Shown in pieces: positions 2,410-61,363 of a stretch of 64,000 nucleotides of DNA (the stretch's first letter is position 1; every line of letters starts with the position of its first letter). Source of the stretch: Candidatus Woesearchaeota archaeon (GTDB taxonomy: Archaea; Nanobdellota; Nanobdellia; SCGC-AAA011-G17; UBA489); NCBI GenBank assembly GCA_964344635.1, contig CAYFOE010000004.1, forward strand, positions 279-64,278. Reading direction: 5' to 3'. The notes beneath the pieces are model-generated. The model was not told where the DNA came from and ran no database searches. It worked only from the letters and a program-made list of their open reading frames with translations. The position numbers and the translations under genes were made by a program.

Positions 2410-5400
2410 ATGATTCTAGAAAAAAGAGGATACTGGAAGTTTTTGGTATTACTTGCAAGTATGTTTTTGTTTTCAATTTATCCTACCAATGCACAAGAAA
2501 TGGGTTGTTGTGAATATGACGGACAAGGAAGCTACTGTCTGCCAACCACCCAGGCAAATTGCGATCCTAATGCATTATGGACTTCAGTTTCATGCGAACA
2601 AACCAGCTTTTGTTCAGTAGGCTGTTGCATTAATTCCATAGATGGATCCTGTAGTGAAAATGTCCCACAAGCAGCCTGTGAGAACACTCAGAACACTGCA
2701 TTCCATGAAGGAACTAGTTGTGATACAATCTCTTATTGTCAAATGGGTTGTTGTGAACTAGGGAGTAGTTTTATTTTTAATACAAAACAATCCTGTCAAA
2801 GACTAATTGATGAATATTATCCCTCACTAGACATTGAACAATCATGGAATGATCAAATAACCGATGAGTATACCTGTATATCTCAGTCCATACAGGAAGA
2901 CGAAGGATGCTGCGTCGAATCAGACGGAGTTTTCAACTACTGTAATTGGGGAACAAGAGGAACCTGCTCTACTAGCGGAGAAGAAAACAGTGCAGAAAGT
3001 TCCGAAGGATTTTACAAAGACATTTTTTGTAGCAACTCCAACCTAGAATGTAGTACCTGCACAGCTCACGTATACACTGATTGTGGAGGACAGAATAACG
3101 AAGATGTTTATTGGTTTGACTCTTGCGGGAATAGAGAAGAACTAGTGGAATCATGTGACCCGCTTGGAATTTATGGAGCCGGAAGCATCTGTAAAAATGA
3201 TGGAAATAATGCAGCCTGTTCTAGCGTGGACTGTGAAGACACCTCCGATTTTTTGAACAATGTTCACGATCCTGAAATGGGAGGTTATCGGTCCAACGGA
3301 GAGAGTTGGTGTGTAAGGCAGGCCAAAGTAGGCATAGGTTCAGACCTACCAGGAAGTAGACATTATAGATATTCTTGTATTTATGGAGAAGAATTAGTAG
3401 AGTCCTGTGATGAATTCAGGGAAGACATTTGTTTACAGTTTTTACCCAATGAATCATCAGGTATGAATTTTGCAGCATGTGTTGAAAATGAAGGAGCTAA
3501 CTGTGTCAGTGAATGCAACAAAAAACCACTTAATGAAAAAAGAAATCAAAACGAAGCCTGCTGCGAACAATATGACTCCTGTTCTTGGATGAGCTCTGCA
3601 TGCGTTCCGAATGTCCCCCCAGGCTATGCATTCGATGATAGATTTGTTCAAACAACACCAGAATATTCTGCAAAAGACCAATGTAAAGTAGGCAATGCTG
3701 AATGTGAAAGTGTCTGGGTAAAAAATTGGAAATTCCAATGGGAATGTAAAGAAAATTGTCATTGCATGAACGAAGACTGGCCTGCAGACATGAACACATT
3801 CTGTAGAAGTTTAGGAGACTGTGGCGCATGGTATAATCTAGCCGGAGAGTTTACATCTAGTGGCCAAAGAACCGGAGGAAGTGGCCAAACCAAAAATTTG
3901 AATTCTAAAGATTATCAAAAAGATTATCCATTCTCTGAAGTAATCAATGGTGGCGACCAACTAACCATCAATTCCGAGTTATTAAAACACACAACCGCAT
4001 GGGAAATGTATCACTTTTGGAGAGTTGAAGCTATATTTTTATGGCCAATTTGGTTTTTGGAAGATTTTGACAGTGCATTGACATCTTTTTTAAGAGCAGC
4101 AGGCTTTGGTTGGTTATTTGGAATCGGAGACAGGAAAACTAAAACCCATAAATTCTTTTGTTCACCCTGGCAAGCACCTCTAAGATCAGACAGTTGCGAG
4201 CAATGTAGTGACCTGGCACCCGACGGAGTTTGCTATGAATCACTATGTAGGAGCCTAGGAAAGAATTGTGAATTAATTAATGGCGATGATCCAATACTCG
4301 CAGAATGCATTAGTGGAAGTGTTAACGATGTAGTTCCTCCACACATAACACCCTCCTTTGAAATTATTGAAAATCAAAAAGACCAATTTGATGTTAACTA
4401 CCAAGTAAATATCATCTCCGGAGGAAACGGCTTTGTTATAGATCCTGACGTTGACCCCCTGAAAGAATTTGTGATCGGACTAGAAACAAATGAGCCCGCA
4501 CAATGCAGATATGATTTCAGTTTAGATAAAATAAGTTATTATGAAATGGACTATGAATTCGACGAAGGTAGCGCATTAGTTCATGAACACAACCTAAGCC
4601 TAGTCCTGCCTGGAGGAAAAGATTACGAACTCTATGTGAGGTGTATGGACTTCTACGAAAATGGTGAAGATGCCCCACCCTACCTTGTTAAGTTTAATAC
4701 AAAAGATGAACCCGACAATCAACCAGCAATAATTCTTGCAACAGACCCTTGGCAAGGAAGCCCAGTAGCTTACAATGTAAATGAAACCCCACTGATACTA
4801 TACCTGAATGAACCAGTAGAAACATGTAGATGGAGCAATCAAAACATTCCATTCGAACAAATGCATCTAAACAATAGCTTCTTCTGCGGATGTGACGTAG
4901 GAGAATTAAACTCATGTACCGGAACTAGTGCTTCAGGAGGGGAAGATCTTTGCGAGTACTTAGATGAGAACGGCCTATTTGTTTATGATGACTTTGAGTG
5001 CGTCGGATTATTGGAAGGAATACAACCCGAACAAGAAAACGAATTCTTTATCTCATGTGTAGACATTCAAAAGGACGATGGAACTGGTTGTAATTATTTC
5101 TCAAACAATTACAAGTTTAGTCTAATGGGAAGTTCAGAACTAGAAATCATCAGCGCAGAACCAGAAAATGGAACATATTACACACCCTGGTTTGATGTAA
5201 GAATTACCACACTAGGCGGAGCGGATAATGGAAACGCAGTTTGTTATTTAGACGGCATTGAATTCTATGAAACAGGAAGCAATTTGCATATTCAATCACA
5301 AAACAGATCTGCAGGAAGTTACGAGTACGGCATTGAGTGTATGGATGTTGCAGGGAATGTAGCAAGTATAGCGATGGAAATAGAAATTGATATCGATGAC

Positions 5401-5643
5401 AATGCACCCACAGTTGAAAACTTATACCTCCAAGGCGGAATACTCTACTTGATCACTGACGAACCAAGCACTTGCGAATATAGCATAGATAATCCTGAAT
5501 TTTCAATTGGAAACGGATTAGAACTAACCGGAAGAATGGTAAAAGAGCACAGCCTTGCATTTGTTGAAGACGTCTACTACATCAAATGCTATGATTCTTA
5601 TACGAATATAGGAGAAACAATAAGTGTCTATAATGGGGCTTAG
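2410..5643 (+). CDS. Giant secreted Cys-rich protein, paralog 1 (N-terminal CC modules, central hydrophobic insert, C-terminal Ig-like repeats)
   Basis: 1077 aa; signal peptide ending TNA|Q; repeated GCC motifs, YWFDSCGN, LGDCGAWYN, CSPWQAP; acidic C-terminal repeats NEPAQCRY / NEPVETCRW / DEPSTCEY. Confidence 0.85.
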   Translation: MILEKRGYWKFLVLLASMFLFSIYPTNAQEMGCCEYDGQGSYCLPTTQANCDPNALWTSVSCEQTSFCSVGCCINSIDGSCSENVPQAACENTQNTAFHEGTSCDTISYCQMGCCELGSSFIFNTKQSCQRLIDEYYPSLDIEQSWNDQITDEYTCISQSIQEDEGCCVESDGVFNYCNWGTRGTCSTSGEENSAESSEGFYKDIFCSNSNLECSTCTAHVYTDCGGQNNEDVYWFDSCGNREELVESCDPLGIYGAGSICKNDGNNAACSSVDCEDTSDFLNNVHDPEMGGYRSNGESWCVRQAKVGIGSDLPGSRHYRYSCIYGEELVESCDEFREDICLQFLPNESSGMNFAACVENEGANCVSECNKKPLNEKRNQNEACCEQYDSCSWMSSACVPNVPPGYAFDDRFVQTTPEYSAKDQCKVGNAECESVWVKNWKFQWECKENCHCMNEDWPADMNTFCRSLGDCGAWYNLAGEFTSSGQRTGGSGQTKNLNSKDYQKDYPFSEVINGGDQLTINSELLKHTTAWEMYHFWRVEAIFLWPIWFLEDFDSALTSFLRAAGFGWLFGIGDRKTKTHKFFCSPWQAPLRSDSCEQCSDLAPDGVCYESLCRSLGKNCELINGDDPILAECISGSVNDVVPPHITPSFEIIENQKDQFDVNYQVNIISGGNGFVIDPDVDPLKEFVIGLETNEPAQCRYDFSLDKISYYEMDYEFDEGSALVHEHNLSLVLPGGKDYELYVRCMDFYENGEDAPPYLVKFNTKDEPDNQPAIILATDPWQGSPVAYNVNETPLILYLNEPVETCRWSNQNIPFEQMHLNNSFFCGCDVGELNSCTGTSASGGEDLCEYLDENGLFVYDDFECVGLLEGIQPEQENEFFISCVDIQKDDGTGCNYFSNNYKFSLMGSSELEIISAEPENGTYYTPWFDVRITTLGGADNGNAVCYLDGIEFYETGSNLHIQSQNRSAGSYEYGIECMDVAGNVASIAMEIEIDIDDNAPTVENLYLQGGILYLITDEPSTCEYSIDNPEFSIGNGLELTGRMVKEHSLAFVEDVYYIKCYDSYTNIGETISVYNGA

Positions 5644-5697: not shown

Positions 5698-6504
5698 GTG
5701 TTTTATTTGAGCAAAAAAGAGCAAACTAGTTTTTTTCAAGGAATCAAGTCTAAAAAGGCTCAGGCAACAACCTTTATTGTTCTAGGCTTAGTCATTCTAG
5801 CTGTTGTTGTTTTGTTCGGATTTGTCAGAACCCAGTTTTTATTCGGTCCAGTTTCCATAGACAAATTAAACCAAGTTGGCTTGGAACCAATCAGAGATCA
5901 TGTAGAAGACTGTGTAGAAGAAGTAGCACCAGAATACTTTGACAGAATAGGAATGCAAGGCGGTTATTTGTCTACGCCCGAAGACACATTTAGAAATGTA
6001 AACGGAGTAACCGTAAGCTATCTTTGTTACAATATGGAAGATGTTCCAAACTGTTACAATCGTTATTTGACCTTAAGTGGAATGGAATCACAATTGAGTA
6101 ATGCAATAGTTGATGGGTTAAGCAGTTGTATTAATCTTAAAGGATTTGCAAGAGGGGCAACATTGAACGTTGGAAACTTAGACGTTGAAGTAGACGTAGG
6201 AGATTATGAATCAATCGTAGATGTCAAGATGCCCATCAGAATTTCAAAAGGCGATCTATTTGTTGAAGAAAGTGATTTCAGCACAAGTTTGAAATTACCT
6301 CTTGGAGCACTATATGGGGTTTCAATGGACATTCTAGAGAGTGAAACCACAGTCGGAGAATTTGATCAGTTAGGTTATATGCTAATGCATAGAGGACAAT
6401 ACGTAATCGATAAAAAAAGACCTTATCCTGATAAGTTGTATGTTTTGAAGACTAAAGATGATGACTATATCTTCCAATTTTTTGTACAGGGCGAACCTGC
6501 ATAG
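5698..6504 (+). CDS. Pilin-like protein with class III signal peptide (KKA|QA)
   Basis: SKKAQATTFIVLGLVILAVVVLF fits the archaeal prepilin pattern; true start may be TTG 5707 after the GGGGTG SD. Confidence 0.8.
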   Translation: MFYLSKKEQTSFFQGIKSKKAQATTFIVLGLVILAVVVLFGFVRTQFLFGPVSIDKLNQVGLEPIRDHVEDCVEEVAPEYFDRIGMQGGYLSTPEDTFRNVNGVTVSYLCYNMEDVPNCYNRYLTLSGMESQLSNAIVDGLSSCINLKGFARGATLNVGNLDVEVDVGDYESIVDVKMPIRISKGDLFVEESDFSTSLKLPLGALYGVSMDILESETTVGEFDQLGYMLMHRGQYVIDKKRPYPDKLYVLKTKDDDYIFQFFVQGEPA

Positions 6505-6514
6505 GTGATTAAAT

Positions 6515-9500
6515 TTGTTTAGTAATAAATACACAAAGGAAAAGGCATTGTTCCAGATTTTCCTAATTGTATTTGTAGCATTTACCATTTCTGTTAATGT
6601 GGACAAAGTAGAAGCACAATCCCAAGACGTTTGTTGTGCAGAAACTGTCTCAGGAGAGAGTTGTGTTTATACCTCCTCTGATAATTGTGCTCCCGGATCT
6701 CAGAGTGCCGCAGCTTCATGTGAACAAACTAGCTTCTGTAAACTAGGATGTGGATTTGATCAAGAAGACGGACTATGCTTTAACAATATGCCAAAGTTTT
6801 CCTGTGAAAACAAAGAAGGATGTTCTTGGAGCCCAGAAGCTGATTGCGATATCCCTCAATGTGAAAGAGGATGTTGTGTTTTAAGCAATCAATGCTCATT
6901 TACAACACAAGTTCAATGTAAACAAATAACCTCACAATATGAAGACATTAACATGACATTCGATGAAGGAATCACATCAGAAGTTGCATGTTTGAATCAG
7001 TGTAGGAGCTATGAACGAGGGGCTTGTGTTAGCGATGACGGAAGCTGTAGTTTTACAACCAGGGATGCTTGTACAGAAGAGAATGCAGAAGGCGTTAACG
7101 TCACATTACCTTTAGTTGGATTCCATCCAGGTATGCTATGCAGTAATCCAAGACTCGGAACAGAATGTGCACCACAACACACCACTGCATGTTTAGCTGA
7201 GGCAGACGGAGTTTACTGGTTTGACTCTTGCGGAAACGCAGAAAATGTTTATTCTTCAGACAAAGTTAAAAGTTACAATGGAGGATTTGTCTTAAGCAAA
7301 GAAGAAAGCTGTGGATATGGTAATGCAAATATTGACAGTGAAGTCTGCGGAAATTGTGACTATTCTCTAGGCAGTTTATGCTCAATAGCCGAAGAAGGTG
7401 TTAATCCAGTCTATGGAGACTTTGCATGTAAAAGCCTAGCTTGCGATGGCGAAATTGTAACGGTCGATTTGAATGCACCTGCAACCAGCAACTTGCCCCT
7501 AGCTAATGGAGAAAGCTGGTGTGCATACGATGGATTGGTTGGGGCAAACGAGAATGCAGGACTAGGTCTAGACTTAGTAGGGAGCAGACACTATAGGAGA
7601 ATTTGTATCAATGGCGAAGAATTTACAGAACCTTGTAAAGACTTCAGAGAAGAAATGTGCGTACAGGGAGAAGTTGACCCTAACGTAGATCCAGCATTAC
7701 AACAAATCTTTGGAACCCAAGAAAGTTTTGGAAGTGCAGGCGTAGGGGATAATCTGATTTACGGAGCATGTAGGGAAAATAGATTCCAAGATTGTACATC
7801 CGTTAAAACCAAAGACGCATGCGAAAACAATGCAGTAAGAGATTGTACATGGATACTGGGAAATGAGAAAGAAGTCCCCCAAAACAATAAAGGAATAACA
7901 GCATGTGTTCCACTAGTTTCTCCAGGATTAAAACATTGGAGCGATGAAAGTTCAACCACCTCAAGCAAAGTTGATCCCAAGGCAACTTGTGAAAAAGGAA
8001 ATACTGAATGTACAGTTTATTTTGCAAAAAGTGGATTCGATAACATTCTTGGCGGAGACTGGGAATGTGAAGGTAATTGTGAATGTCTAACTCAAGACTA
8101 TCTACAAGATGCTAATGCAGTTTGTAAAAGTTTAGGAGACTGCGGAGCATGGTATAATATAGCAGGTGACAAAAGTTGTGATGGTTTCGTTGAAAATCTA
8201 AACCAATACACTGATCCAACTGCAAGAAATGATGTAGACGTTTGTAATGCATTAGTTCCATTCGGAGATCTAAGAGGGAAAGGTGGAAGGCATGGAGCAG
8301 ACGTTGCAGGGTTTGACGCATTCTTTAGTCCAGCACTAGGTCCAGCACTAGGGATAACTGCAATCGGAGCAGGATTGAGTTTAGGGGCTGTAGGGGGAGA
8401 ATATAGTCTATTGCAAGGAATCACACATGGTCCGAACTCATTAATATCTTTGACTGAAGGAGGAGCATTTGCGCCCGAAGGCATTGCTGCAGCTGAAGGA
8501 TTACTAGGAACATTGACAACAGTATTCACAGTCGTACAAGTTGCATTATACTTGTACCTAGCATATCAGTTCATCAACACAGTATTCGCAAAAGACAGAG
8601 AAGTTGTAATCGATATCGGATGTAAAGTTTGGCAAGCACCGCCCGGAGGAGAAAACTGTGAACTATGTCAAGAAGATGGAAAAGAGTGTAGCGAGTATAG
8701 ATGTAAGAGTCTGGGTCAAAGTTGTAAACTAGTTAATGAAGGAAGCGAAGATGAAAAATGTATAAGTGCAAACGTTAACGATGTACTGCCTCCATTCGTT
8801 ACAGTGAACAAAGAAAGAACCGTTCATTTGACTGACGGCTTAGACGATATAAGAGACATTACAGAAGTTGAAGGAAAAGGATTTGAAGTAATCCCCAAAA
8901 TTCCACCATTTACAGCAGTCACACTAGTTGTAGACACAAATGAATTTGCACAATGTAAATACGACGTAGAATACGGAAAAGACTTTGACGAAATGGTCCA
9001 ATACTTCGGAGACGGAACATACAACAAAACACACGAAATGTTATTCAGTTTACCTGGAGCTTTAGCAGAACCCGAAGCATTACAATTAACCAACGGCGGC
9101 CAATACCAACTGTATGTTAAATGCCAAGATGGAAACGGCAACCAAAACGAAGCAGACTATTACGCTAAATTCGCAATTGATGACGGTCCAGACTTTACCC
9201 CTCCAATCATAGAAGTTACAAGCATTGCAAATGGAGCATACGTTCCAATGGGCATCAATCAAACTGACTTTTCAATCTATGTAAATGAACCAGCTAATTG
9301 CAAATGGGACGATATTAGCGTTGCATTCGAAGATATGTATCATGAATTTACATGCGATACAAACCCATTCCCAAGTTCCTCACTATATTACGGACTATAT
9401 GAATGCCAAACAGTTTTAGACGGCATCGAAGACATGAGAGACAACGAATACTTCTTCAAATGCGAAGACAAACCCGATAAGCCAAAAGAAGAAAGAAATG

Positions 9501-10069
9501 TTAACATAGAAAGCTACGAATTCCTACTAAGAGGAACTTCCGAATTAGAAATAACAGACGTAGACCCAAGTGGCGGAGAAGAATTAAAATTCAACAGCCC
9601 AACCCTGAAAGTCATTACGGCAGGCGGAGCATATGGCAATGGCGATTCACTTTGTGGATATAACTTCGATACGCCTGGATGGGAAAATGCAATAGAATTC
9701 TTGAACACAAACAGTAGCATTCACGAACAACCATTCTTCAACTTAACTGCAGACGATTACACAATCTACGTAAGTTGCATAGACATTGCAGGAAATATTG
9801 CAGAAGATATTTCCGAATTTAGTGTTATTGTAGATGTCAATGCACCACAAATACAACAAATATATACTTCGCCAGGAATTGTACACATAGTTACAGACGA
9901 ACCAAGCACTTGTGAGTACAGTGTTGAAAGTTCATTTACTTACGGAAACGGAATTCCTATGACTGGAATCATGACTCAAGAACACACTGCAAGTAGGGAA
10001 GGAGATACCTACTACCTGGCATGTATAGATTCATTTGGAAACACTGGAAATTATGTTGTTTTCTTTTAA
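6515..10069 (+). CDS. Giant secreted Cys-rich protein, paralog 2
   Basis: 1184 aa; GGTGAT SD then TTG; collinear with 2410-5643 (YWFDSCGN, NGESWC, GSRHYR, LGDCGAWYN, WQAP, DEPSTCEY); internal Gly/Ala-rich hydrophobic segment. Confidence 0.85.
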   Translation: MFSNKYTKEKALFQIFLIVFVAFTISVNVDKVEAQSQDVCCAETVSGESCVYTSSDNCAPGSQSAAASCEQTSFCKLGCGFDQEDGLCFNNMPKFSCENKEGCSWSPEADCDIPQCERGCCVLSNQCSFTTQVQCKQITSQYEDINMTFDEGITSEVACLNQCRSYERGACVSDDGSCSFTTRDACTEENAEGVNVTLPLVGFHPGMLCSNPRLGTECAPQHTTACLAEADGVYWFDSCGNAENVYSSDKVKSYNGGFVLSKEESCGYGNANIDSEVCGNCDYSLGSLCSIAEEGVNPVYGDFACKSLACDGEIVTVDLNAPATSNLPLANGESWCAYDGLVGANENAGLGLDLVGSRHYRRICINGEEFTEPCKDFREEMCVQGEVDPNVDPALQQIFGTQESFGSAGVGDNLIYGACRENRFQDCTSVKTKDACENNAVRDCTWILGNEKEVPQNNKGITACVPLVSPGLKHWSDESSTTSSKVDPKATCEKGNTECTVYFAKSGFDNILGGDWECEGNCECLTQDYLQDANAVCKSLGDCGAWYNIAGDKSCDGFVENLNQYTDPTARNDVDVCNALVPFGDLRGKGGRHGADVAGFDAFFSPALGPALGITAIGAGLSLGAVGGEYSLLQGITHGPNSLISLTEGGAFAPEGIAAAEGLLGTLTTVFTVVQVALYLYLAYQFINTVFAKDREVVIDIGCKVWQAPPGGENCELCQEDGKECSEYRCKSLGQSCKLVNEGSEDEKCISANVNDVLPPFVTVNKERTVHLTDGLDDIRDITEVEGKGFEVIPKIPPFTAVTLVVDTNEFAQCKYDVEYGKDFDEMVQYFGDGTYNKTHEMLFSLPGALAEPEALQLTNGGQYQLYVKCQDGNGNQNEADYYAKFAIDDGPDFTPPIIEVTSIANGAYVPMGINQTDFSIYVNEPANCKWDDISVAFEDMYHEFTCDTNPFPSSSLYYGLYECQTVLDGIEDMRDNEYFFKCEDKPDKPKEERNVNIESYEFLLRGTSELEITDVDPSGGEELKFNSPTLKVITAGGAYGNGDSLCGYNFDTPGWENAIEFLNTNSSIHEQPFFNLTADDYTIYVSCIDIAGNIAEDISEFSVIVDVNAPQIQQIYTSPGIVHIVTDEPSTCEYSVESSFTYGNGIPMTGIMTQEHTASREGDTYYLACIDSFGNTGNYVVFF

Positions 10070-59578: not shown

Positions 59579-61363
59579 TTAGCCTCTAACCTCTAAGTTA
59601 CATCTCTTTTTATTTAATGCCTTTAGGAGATCTTTCCCTTGAAGACTTTTCTTATTGATTTTTAACTCTCCTTTCTTACTTGTTATCGCAGATGCAATGA
59701 ACTTTCCATTAGCATAAATTTCCAAAGTTTTTCCAGGCTCAGCATAAAAAGTTATACTCTTCTTATCCTCTTTAATAGTATAATCTATTTTATTCTTTTC
59801 TAGTTTAACCTTCCTGACATCTATACCAATACCTAATTCCTTTTCACACTTTTCAATGTTTTTCCCAGCATTTCCAATTATCTTTGCAATTAAATCTTCG
59901 GGCACATAGATTGCCACCTTTGATGAATTCAATAGTTCAGCTTTAATTGCAGAAGAATACTTTGAAAAATATTTTTCAACTTCCTTTTCAGCAAGTTTAT
60001 TCGCGCCAGAAGACTTTTTACTAGAGGTTACAGGGATAACTATAGTCTGCTCTCCATAACTATAGATCTCATAATCGAGCTTATTGGTATTGTAATCTCT
60101 CACCTCAATTACCGGCCTTGCTAAATCAGACTCAGTCATGCCACTAGGAACCTTAACCATCATCTTAAGAGTCAGAACCTTTTCTATTTTACCTGCCTCC
60201 ATGAAAATAATCGTATCTACCACATTAGGAATAACTCCTGTGTCAAGACGCGCAATGAATCTCTGCACTGCATCAATTGCCTGAGCTGCATGGAGAACAC
60301 CAATCATATTAGATCCAGCCAACCTTAAATCTGTATACAAAGTAAAATCTGGCGTGGACCTCATCTCATCAAATAAAATATTGTCCGGCCTTGAGAGGAA
60401 TAAAATGTCATGCATTTCCCCCTCACTAGCAAAATTCTTAGAGTACTGCGTGACCGATTCCGGAAGTTGAAGGTCCCTTGGAGATTCAACAGTTTTAACA
60501 ACCCTATTGTCTCTCACATACCACTCAGCAACCGCCTGAGCTAAAGTAGTTTTACCCGAGCCCGTCTCCCCACAAATAATTATCCCCCTTGCTTGGCGTT
60601 CAATCCTTTCCTCAAGTTCTTCGGGAAGTTTATAATCCTCAAGATTTAGCTTAGTCAACGGATGTACAACAGTTATCTCCCAACCATTTGCTATAGGGGG
60701 TTTAACAATCACAATCCTAAGATTCTTGTACTGGACAACAGTCGTACATTTTTTAGAAATCTCAGTGTAAGATTTTTTATCCAACCTCGTTTTTTCAATA
60801 ATCTCCTGTGCATAAGTTTGCATTTGTTCAGGTGTTAATTTAGTTTTAGTGACCTGTTCTAACTGCCAATTACCTGGCGCACCCTTTTTAGCCATCACAT
60901 AATTACCTTCCTTTAAGTGAAGAGACATGGTTTGATTGTCAAGGTACTTCTGTAAAGTTAGTTCTTCCTGATATTTTACGACTTCTATGAAATCTACAGA
61001 AATTCCCAAGGCCTTTGCTGACTTTGCCTGAACTATGTCTGCAGTAATTAACGTAGCATCATTCTGGAATGCAAGATCTCTGATGTACGCATCTATTTCG
61101 CCAGATTTAGCGTGCTTTATTTGATGTTCAGAAGGTCTATCTCCAATGAACTCTAAGGTGAGTGTTTTCTTTGTCAGATCTCTTATCTCTTGAATTTCTT
61201 CTAGACCAATCAAGCCTATTTCTTTCCCCCTATTTGCCTGATTTTCTAATTCTGCAATCACTGCATGAGGAATTAGAATTTGCCCCTTGGTTATTTTTTT
61301 ATTCTTTATTTTAGATGAAACTATCTTCTCTATGATCGCTGAAGTGTCAATTACATATTTCAT
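59579..61363 (-). CDS. PIN-ATPase-KH protein (PINA-type Holliday junction branch-migration ATPase)
   Basis: N-terminal DTS PIN domain, GETGSGKTT Walker A, LSRPDNILFDEMR, KH motif IIGNAGKNI. Confidence 0.9.
   Translation of the reverse strand: MKYVIDTSAIIEKIVSSKIKNKKITKGQILIPHAVIAELENQANRGKEIGLIGLEEIQEIRDLTKKTLTLEFIGDRPSEHQIKHAKSGEIDAYIRDLAFQNDATLITADIVQAKSAKALGISVDFIEVVKYQEELTLQKYLDNQTMSLHLKEGNYVMAKKGAPGNWQLEQVTKTKLTPEQMQTYAQEIIEKTRLDKKSYTEISKKCTTVVQYKNLRIVIVKPPIANGWEITVVHPLTKLNLEDYKLPEELEERIERQARGIIICGETGSGKTTLAQAVAEWYVRDNRVVKTVESPRDLQLPESVTQYSKNFASEGEMHDILFLSRPDNILFDEMRSTPDFTLYTDLRLAGSNMIGVLHAAQAIDAVQRFIARLDTGVIPNVVDTIIFMEAGKIEKVLTLKMMVKVPSGMTESDLARPVIEVRDYNTNKLDYEIYSYGEQTIVIPVTSSKKSSGANKLAEKEVEKYFSKYSSAIKAELLNSSKVAIYVPEDLIAKIIGNAGKNIEKCEKELGIGIDVRKVKLEKNKIDYTIKEDKKSITFYAEPGKTLEIYANGKFIASAITSKKGELKINKKSLQGKDLLKALNKKRCNLEVRG

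Follow-up and report, generated by a model that had tools for sequence, protein, structure and literature searches.

A hypervariable hydrophobic slot, depleted of glycosylation sequons, in paired giant surface proteins of a DPANN archaeon

Here, we analyze two giant paralogous surface proteins, P1 and P2, encoded in a stretch of 64,000 nucleotides (the window) from a Candidatus Woesearchaeota archaeon (NCBI GenBank assembly GCA_964344635.1, contig CAYFOE010000004.1, positions 279 to 64,278 of the forward strand), and focus on a central slot that interrupts both chains. All members of the family to which P1 and P2 belong carry the slot; this family of two-lobed surface proteins is very large and unnamed, and occurs in Woese-/Pacearchaeota-type DPANN archaea. 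This slot, which is the only hydrophobic region of the family and has no confident AlphaFold fold, likely has a membrane-related role. We observe its anatomy and conservation, an asymmetry between the paralogs, a purge of N-glycosylation sequons and an absence of fusogen-like folds, and tentatively read it as a module for shallow membrane association at the surface of the cell itself.

Anatomy and conservation of the slot

The source genome (658 kb, 95% complete) is that of a low-GC archaeon whose relatives carry the labels Woesearchaeota or Nanoarchaeota in homolog searches. The giants and the parts of their slots lie in the window as follows:

2410..5643, plus strand: P1, the upstream giant paralog, 1077 residues (open reading frame and translation, match to P2, orthologs, AlphaFold)
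3814..4161, plus strand: central slot of P1, from GDCG (residue 469) to the Cys of CSPWQAP (residue 584) (motif positions)
3997..4128, plus strand: aromatic helix pair of P1, residues 530-573, reading AWEMYHFWRVEAIFLWPIWFL, EDFDS, ALTSFLRAAGFGWLFGIG (hydropathy, orthologs)
6515..10069, plus strand: P2, the downstream giant paralog, 1184 residues counted from a TTG start (open reading frame and translation, homologs, AlphaFold)
8135..8623, plus strand: central slot of P2, from GDCG (residue 541) to the Cys of CKVWQAP (residue 703) (motif positions)
8318..8398, plus strand: segment 1 of P2, residues 602-628, Gly/Ala-rich and uncharged (Kyte-Doolittle 1.61, Hessa sum +4.0)
8399..8497, plus strand: linker of P2, residues 629-661, acidic, with neither Lys/Arg nor a sequon (translation)
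8498..8590, plus strand: segment 2 of P2, residues 662-692, the terminal helix, continuing into the first C-lobe strand (Kyte-Doolittle 1.68, Hessa sum +2.3)

P1 consists of a signal peptide, a Cys-rich N-lobe, the central slot, a Cys-knuckle and four immunoglobulin (Ig)-like domains. P1 and P2 are collinear and share 29% identity over their full length (BLASTP), but the alignment collapses precisely between LGDCGAWYN (P1 468, P2 540) and CxxWQAP (P1 584, P2 703). Both giants show an acidic excess (174-181 Asp and Glu versus 56-69 Lys and Arg), contain 66-68 Cys and start with Sec-type signal peptides, ending in TNA/Q and VEA/Q (the slash marks the end of the peptide). Their C-terminal half is a chain of Ig-like domains, and the four C-terminal domains give sub-threshold to threshold matches to Big_13 (PF19077), DUF4625 and Y_Y_Y. 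Neither protein has a C-terminal hydrophobic segment, the Kyte-Doolittle maximum over the last 40 residues being 0.19 in P1 and 0.67 in P2. In these respects the initial annotation of this DNA, which described acidic, disulfide-bonded ectodomains without a C-terminal anchor, is borne out for both giants. Its coordinates are exact as well: 8294-8587 corresponds to P2 residues 594-691 and 3997-4128 to P1 residues 530-573.

The P2 stretch is Gly/Ala-rich as described, with 32% Gly and Ala versus 15% in the remainder of the protein, no Cys versus 66 elsewhere, and 6% charged residues versus 22%. It is enclosed by the longest Cys-free run of P2 (578-702) and holds the two longest uncharged runs of the chain (602-628, 27 residues; 662-692, 31 residues). 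Segment 1 starts with the final residues of an FDAFF motif that is kept in homologs; both this family entry motif (...FDAFF..P) and the terminal helix are retained in P2, the latter with Q, Y and N where the family motif N/W/Y/Y/D has N, W and D. The 33-residue loop between the segments contains four Glu and lacks both Lys and Arg. It is a hypervariable linker in its shortest form, and relatives at 72-78% identity differ from P2 mainly by ~80 extra Ala-rich residues here. On the minus strand, a 143-codon open reading frame (8098-8529) runs antisense to the Gly/Ala-rich part of P2; rather than being a gene, it most likely arises from the GC-richer Gly and Ala codons. At the other end of P2, the version of the protein listed as P0004 (1156 residues) begins 28 codons later (window 6515-6598) and thereby loses the signal peptide, while the TTG start at 6515 gives back the N-terminus KEKALFQIFLIVFVAF...VEA/Q, in agreement with the conserved N-termini of homologs.

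In P1 the longest Cys-free run (472-583) also lies within the slot. Residues 530-573 contain five Trp and seven Phe, and this share (12 of 44) is the highest among the 368 family proteins fetched. The stretch is thus Trp/Phe-rich as initially described, but not hydrophobic on the usual scale: E, H, R, E and R interrupt its two helices and the Kyte-Doolittle maximum is 1.07. The Hessa sums of the two segments are +10.2 and +5.2; their Wimley-White interfacial values (-7.4 and -5.5 kcal/mol) are strongly favorable. P1 retains the ending ...FGIGDRKTK..F.C.PWQAP typical of upstream paralogs, and its orthologs at 49% identity or less bear true hairpins. The aromatic pair appears to be a decayed version of the tight transmembrane hairpin seen in most positional orthologs. 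A frameshift or assembly artefact was considered as its source and rejected, as stops abound in the other two frames and two relatives (P0125, P0126) keep the aromatic character in frame.

A Cys-knuckle directly follows the slot in both proteins (window 8621-8794, P2 residues 703-760; window 4159-4329, P1 residues 584-640). It is small, confidently modeled and has seven invariant Cys in the pattern CxxWQAP..DCExC..C....C......C...........C. This odd number suggests that one Cys might form a disulfide with a Cys outside the knuckle, possibly near GDCG.

Homologs of P2 amount to more than 1134 proteins in a word-indexed search and to 2879 representative clusters in an exhaustive search, 1483 of them below 1e-30. 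Of 37 genomes sampled from the window's order, 36 contain the family, in most cases as neighboring paralogs, and the rest of the class gives more distant, partial matches. Source names of its members never go beyond 'hypothetical protein', literature searches found no description of the family, and sequence searches of the giants and the neighboring pilin-like proteins against Pfam, NCBIfam and PDB returned only weak Ig-like and pilin N-terminal matches.

Among 321 homologs, the slot spans 109-493 residues (median 228), which confirms its variability, and the window slots (excursions of 111-158 residues; 115 in P1 and 162 in P2 by the family measure) are among the shortest. HMMER alignments split at the slot. 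Strong hydrophobic 19-mers (Kyte-Doolittle at least 1.6) occur within it in 227 of the 321 homologs and elsewhere after the signal peptide in only 10, so that the hydrophobicity of this place is not a matter of chance. The slot is the sole hydrophobic region after the signal peptide in 311 homologs, and none of the 321 has a C-terminal hydrophobic segment or anchor. Its composition (Ala 13.8%, Gly 14.0%, Cys 0.4%) differs from that of the lobes, which contain 9.0% and 3.9% Cys. Family members most often have two uncharged hydrophobic runs; counts of hydrophobic segments on simple scales range from 0 to 6 and are too noisy for an even-number test.

The initial annotation called the two stretches a swapped insert. 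Judging from the sequences, each paralog instead bears its lineage's version of one homologous, hypervariable slot. A foreign cassette was likewise rejected, given that the third-codon-position GC content of both stretches equals the gene background and that relatives share the same slot.

AlphaFold2 models were built from 62-sequence alignments for full-length P2 and for P1 residues 29-650. The P2 model has an overall predicted local distance difference test score (pLDDT) of 79.8, falling below 50 at 580-599 and 605-668. Helices are predicted at 600-607, 611-622 (pLDDT below 50) and 667-690 (pLDDT 62-80), followed by a strand at 693-703. The P1 model reaches a pLDDT of 85, with the N-lobe above 90 (about 92), and drops below 50 over 509-515, 527-555, 560-562 and 564-566, with helices predicted at 522-537 and 551-563. 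Hence, the flanks of the slot are well folded in both models (pLDDT 85-95), whereas slot helices fall below 50. As neither model shows a confident slot fold, nothing puts the slot in a globular core. In Foldseek searches, read from the 50 best matches listed per search, the full-length model matched only tandem Ig and fibronectin type III (FN3) adhesion chains in PDB. The model of N-lobe plus slot had no match in PDB (best E 0.2) or BFVD (best E 0.02), and the ~500-residue Cys-rich head of the giants is without a structural match. No class II fusogen, HAP2 or Fsx1 was among the matches listed in any search, nor was any pore former or translocator.

Asymmetry between the paralogs

For comparison, 19 loci were retrieved from other genomes of this order and its class, and their best 19-mers were rated by a plain sum on the Hessa scale without position terms. 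For calibration, the real or likely transmembrane helices checked in this genome score from -6.1 to about +3.7. On this scale, 18 of the 19 loci have one or more paralogs at or below 0, the lowest value being -5.7. This strong paralog is usually the upstream, shorter one, with the reverse order in one locus (L009). Its segments lie in a contiguous uncharged unit of 45-60 residues with a Pro/Gly turn, as hydrophobic as the strongest transmembrane helices of the genome; by its length and composition, such a unit is predicted to be a tight transmembrane hairpin and nothing else.

The longer, downstream paralogs range from -1.0 to +6.7, mostly above +2. They have a weak Gly/Ala segment, a variable linker and then one conserved helix with N (75%), W (74%), Y (64% and 77%) and D (87%) at fixed positions and a median uncharged length of 27 residues. 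Segment 2 holds Arg or other charged residues in many homologs, and up to about 300 residues of linker separate the hydrophobic helices in the family.

The window departs from this pattern. P2 (+2.3 and +4.0) lies at the weak edge of the range of the genome's transmembrane helices and P1 (+5.2 and +10.2) outside it. The best scores of the pair are thus +5.2 and +2.3, and those of the nearest sister pair are 7.6 and 2.7. The window's genus and one further locus (L015) are the exceptions in which neither giant has a strong transmembrane segment. We therefore do not take it as a rule, or as proof, that every locus has one or more strong anchors: this is true in 18 of the 19 other loci and fails in these two cases.

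Sequon purge, topology and competing readings

Linkers of 263 homologs (29,897 residues) contain 9 N-x-S/T sequons versus 151 ± 11 expected from per-protein shuffles, an observed-to-expected ratio (O/E) of 0.06. This depletion is specific to the motif, as shown by the controls in the same linkers:

N-x-S/T: O/E 0.06
S/T-x-N (reverse): O/E 0.93
Q-x-S/T: O/E 0.92
D-x-S/T: O/E 1.07
N-S/T (adjacent): O/E 0.94

The baseline in this genome is 0.95 for 190 proteins without hydrophobic segments (cytoplasmic) and 1.02 for 112 membrane or secreted proteins, and the S-layer protein has an O/E of 1.29. Projected onto P2, the family profile is as follows:

P2 36-100: O/E 0.13
P2 100-230: O/E 0.94-1.23
P2 230-600: O/E 0.08-0.21
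P2 600-703, slot: O/E 0.27
P2 703-760, Cys-knuckle: O/E 0.31
Ig-like domains 1-3: O/E 0.90-1.48
Ig-like domain 4: O/E 0.43

The family-wide purged zone is contiguous and comprises the Cys-rich core, the slot and the Cys-knuckle (window 7202-8794, P2 230-760; window 3007-4329, P1 200-640). The window proteins themselves have no sequon in P2 230-760 versus 3.9 expected (p 0.0135) and one in P1 200-640 versus 4.0; the purge is a test at the level of the family, the 33-residue loop of P2 being too short alone.

The oligosaccharyltransferase (AglB in archaea) sits on the outer face of the membrane, and selection on sequons acts only where the chain meets AglB. Hence, the purge argues for a linker that would be extracytoplasmic, against a cytoplasmic loop, and the linker may belong to a wider central zone in which glycans are not tolerated. 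An external linker is also in line with two further observations. First, 10 homologs (P0103, P0105, P0109, P0113, P0116, P0119, P0122, P0161, P0243 and P0253) carry insertions in the linker, Cys-rich domains with 6-14 Cys, and the number of Cys is even in 9 of the 10. A Pfam search of these inserted domains gave no match, and some of this subfamily also contain Lys/Glu/Ala-rich, coiled-coil-like stretches. Second, Lys and Arg are not enriched on the loop side. The positive-inside analysis may be best taken as uninformative or mildly against a cytoplasmic loop. Lys-rich flanks after the last helix in the upstream type had prompted a single-pass reading with a cytoplasmic C-lobe, which we rejected because of the conserved Cys pairs of each Ig-like domain, the extracellular type of these domain families and, in a last and more conjectural step, the invariant motifs flanking the slot.

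In the reading that we tentatively prefer, the chain would exit the compact Cys-rich domain after GDCG, enter a Cys-free, glycan-free excursion with the only hydrophobic helices of the protein, and re-enter at CxxW(Q)AP into the Ig-like C-lobe, which would leave both lobes outside the cell. The slot would then most likely serve to keep the giant on the outer face of its own cell's membrane or, alternatively, docked to partner helices embedded in the membrane, for example those of the five pilin-like proteins encoded next to the giants. From these features we infer membrane association itself, the topology and the contact with the pilin-like proteins. A hairpin of 45-60 residues would be integrated by the Sec machinery into the producer's own membrane. 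The downstream-type helix seems too short for two membrane crossings and probably lies at the interface: as each weak helix cannot cross twice and the loop is apparently outside, the helices would most likely rest at the outer interface or against pilin-like helices. In this genome both giants would be shallow, P2 with two marginal helices and P1 with its hairpin decayed to a Trp/Phe-rich, charge-interrupted pair.

Several points weigh against this reading. Both window giants are less hydrophobic than the anchors of their relatives, placing anchoring here below the family norm, and 19 of the 321 homologs are without any usable hydrophobic segment. Family-wide, the flanks are richer in Lys/Arg than the loop and there is no positive-inside signal. 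Moreover, the purge is silent on which membrane or partner helices are touched: it weakens a classical anchor, does not tell the cell's own membrane, a host membrane and partner helices apart, and fits engagement of a host membrane equally well.

An ordinary two-pass anchor is the most probable rival for P2, and we consider it unlikely. Here, segment 1 would stop transfer, the 33-residue loop would be cytoplasmic and segment 2 would re-initiate export of the C-lobe. The uncharged runs of 27 and 31 residues on either side of a short loop fit such an arrangement, as do the modal number of two runs in the family and the lack of any other anchor in the giants, and the Hessa sums of +4.0 and +2.3 overlap the weak end of the genome's real transmembrane helices. 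However, 9 linker sequons instead of 151, with motif controls at 0.92-1.07 and a cytoplasmic baseline of 0.95, indicate that the linker is seen by the glycosylation machinery. The even-Cys domains in linkers of a subfamily, a P2 loop with four Glu and no Lys or Arg in a family without positive-inside bias, and the Arg or other charges of segment 2 in many homologs also speak against it. Thus, the plain internal transmembrane anchor that the initial annotation gave as its alternative fits the hairpin paralog in 18 of the 19 other loci and is doubtful for both window copies. A two-pass anchor conserved across homologs, which it named as a refutation, finds the slot as the only anchor candidate in 311 of the 321; the sequon purge argues against its cytoplasmic loop.

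Less probable still is a slot that makes no lipid contact and acts as a protein-protein element, binding the N-terminal helices of pilin-like proteins or forming a homo-oligomer, with the linker as a flexible hinge between the lobes. The downstream terminal helix keeps polar and aromatic residues at fixed positions like a specific interface, and the giants always have five pilin-like genes next to them, whose products start with very hydrophobic helices. The 19 homologs without a hydrophobic segment are consistent with this, and a buried interface would also account for selection against glycans. But the tight hairpins in most loci, usually upstream, are as hydrophobic as the genome's strongest transmembrane helices, AlphaFold gives no confident packing of the helices onto folded domains, and the signal peptides of the giants are Sec-type, not class III, which argues that they are not filament subunits.

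An offensive element, glycan-free outside the cell and inserting into a host membrane as a junction, pore or fusion intermediate, is in our view improbable. The linker and its flanks, apparently extracytoplasmic and purged of sequons, would suit such a role, P2-type segments may lack the hydrophobicity needed for the producer's translocon to retain them, and the 658-kb genome suggests a host-dependent lifestyle. Gly/Ala-rich and Trp-rich segments like these resemble viral fusion peptides and membrane-proximal regions. On the other hand, the matches listed show no fold in common with class II fusogens or viral proteins, and there is no C-terminal anchor for drawing two membranes together. A strongly hydrophobic hairpin is integrated into the producer's own membrane during Sec export, and the hairpin paralog present in most genera, usually upstream, would share this fate. 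Furthermore, the sequon-free zone spans the folded Cys-rich core (P2 230-760) and is not specific to the hydrophobic part, and the cluster sits with the cell's own S-layer gene. Of the initial proposal of a membrane- or host-inserting segment, a membrane-related role stays plausible and the purge keeps action from outside alive, while a fusogen structure finds no support.

Equally improbable is that the slot and the Cys-rich core (P2 ~230-760) form the glycan-free working face of a contact machine whose Gly/Ala-rich and Trp/Tyr/Phe-rich helices would engage the host membrane or thread the host envelope, with the glycosylated Ig-like stalk and the pilin-like proteins holding the giant on the symbiont; if so, the loss of the P1 hairpin in the window's genus would mark a shift of both paralogs to an outward-acting mode.

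Gene neighborhood and known systems

Pilin-like genes and an S-layer gene accompany the giants:

5698..6504, plus strand: pilin-like protein encoded between P1 and P2; class III signal peptide ...KKA/QATTFIVLGLV (translation; position kept in the 46%-identical locus)
10107..12591, plus strand: four small pilin-like genes, 10107-10646, 10636-11637, 11637-12170 and 12172-12591 (N-termini, synteny)
12853..15471, plus strand: S-layer protein gene at the end of the conserved cluster (PF05124 S_layer_C, E 1.2e-15; same arrangement in locus L001)

The N-termini of the four small pilin-like genes (KKRGQ/, KKGD/ and KKGQ/) are followed by strongly hydrophobic helices, and the pilin-like genes give weak UpsA and archaellin N-terminal matches. 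The order giant, pilin-like gene, giant, four pilin-like genes, S-layer gene and three small membrane proteins is kept in a locus with a 46%-identical giant. Three small genes follow the S-layer gene in the window (15588-17279; 154, 193 and 214 residues) and have the same position in L001; the 193- and 214-residue proteins have one N-terminal transmembrane helix each. These three genes seem to belong to the conserved cluster.

The genome has one A24 prepilin peptidase and four T2SSE-type secretion ATPases (window 59579-61363, minus strand; G000 C3:67166-67510, C1:55514-56029, C8:17983-18705 and C3:49732-50340). One secretion ATPase lies within the window, and no peptidase or ATPase gene adjoins the cluster of giants and pilin-like genes.

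Giants and pilin-like neighbors occupy ~1.5% of the 658-kb genome and are kept in nearly every genome of the order. They are leading candidates for the structure with which these ultra-small archaea attach to their surroundings or hosts. As the only part of the giants able to touch a membrane, the slot offers the shortest route to the function of this apparatus. The deep-versus-shallow asymmetry of the paralogs, the decay of the hairpin in the window's genus and the motif-specific purge of glycosylation sites, a cheap topology test, provide experimental handles.

Class II fusogens and fusexins (HAP2, EFF-1, Fsx1) likewise combine an acidic, disulfide-rich ectodomain, subsequent Ig-like domains and an uncharged membrane-facing element, and the initial annotation drew this analogy. 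Fsx1, an archaeal relative of these fusogens, has the class II fold with three domains, a fusion loop of six residues and, at the C-terminus, three transmembrane helices (PMC9259645). The giants have neither fold similarity to class II fusogens nor C-terminal transmembrane segments. Their element, predicted as helices at low confidence, is an excursion of 109-493 residues in the family instead of a short loop at the tip of a β-sheet and, unlike fusexins, they belong to a core operon of nearly all genomes of the order and not to mobile elements; the analogy therefore fails. The same applies to the proposed likeness to Gly/Ala hairpins of translocators and pore formers: the slot is flanked by β-rich, Cys-knotted domains and, in contrast to the hairpins of colicins, the diphtheria T-domain and type III secretion system translocators, is not shielded by a surrounding bundle of amphipathic helices. 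Big_13, DUF4625 and Y_Y_Y resemble the Ig-like stalk only, not the slot or the Cys-rich head.

Closer in context are archaeal type IV pilus loci, which encode large signal-peptide proteins termed 'adhesin or minor pilin' (Makarova et al., 2016; PMC4858521). Like the giants, these are large, Cys-rich and Sec-exported, and their genes neighbor several genes for class III signal-peptide (pilin-like) proteins and, in some cases, an S-layer-like gene; their function is assigned from context only. However, they are described with a C-terminal transmembrane segment or none, whereas the giants have a mid-chain hydrophobic slot, no sequence or family match in Pfam, NCBIfam or PDB, and no ATPase or platform gene inside their cluster.

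In the design of the slot, helical-hairpin anchors, in which a tight turn joins two closely spaced hydrophobic helices, come nearest. The strong paralog of 18 of the 19 other loci resembles them in its 45-60-residue uncharged unit, its Pro/Gly turn and flanks on the same side. P1, with charges inside both helices, and P2, with two marginal helices, differ from them, as do family linkers of up to about 300 residues. Alongside the paralog asymmetry, the sequon purge is a new constraint on the slot, and a simple hairpin with a cytoplasmic loop seems disfavored for the downstream type. A mid-chain hydrophobic anchor module is of a known kind; the DPANN surface apparatus around it is uncharacterized and very widespread.

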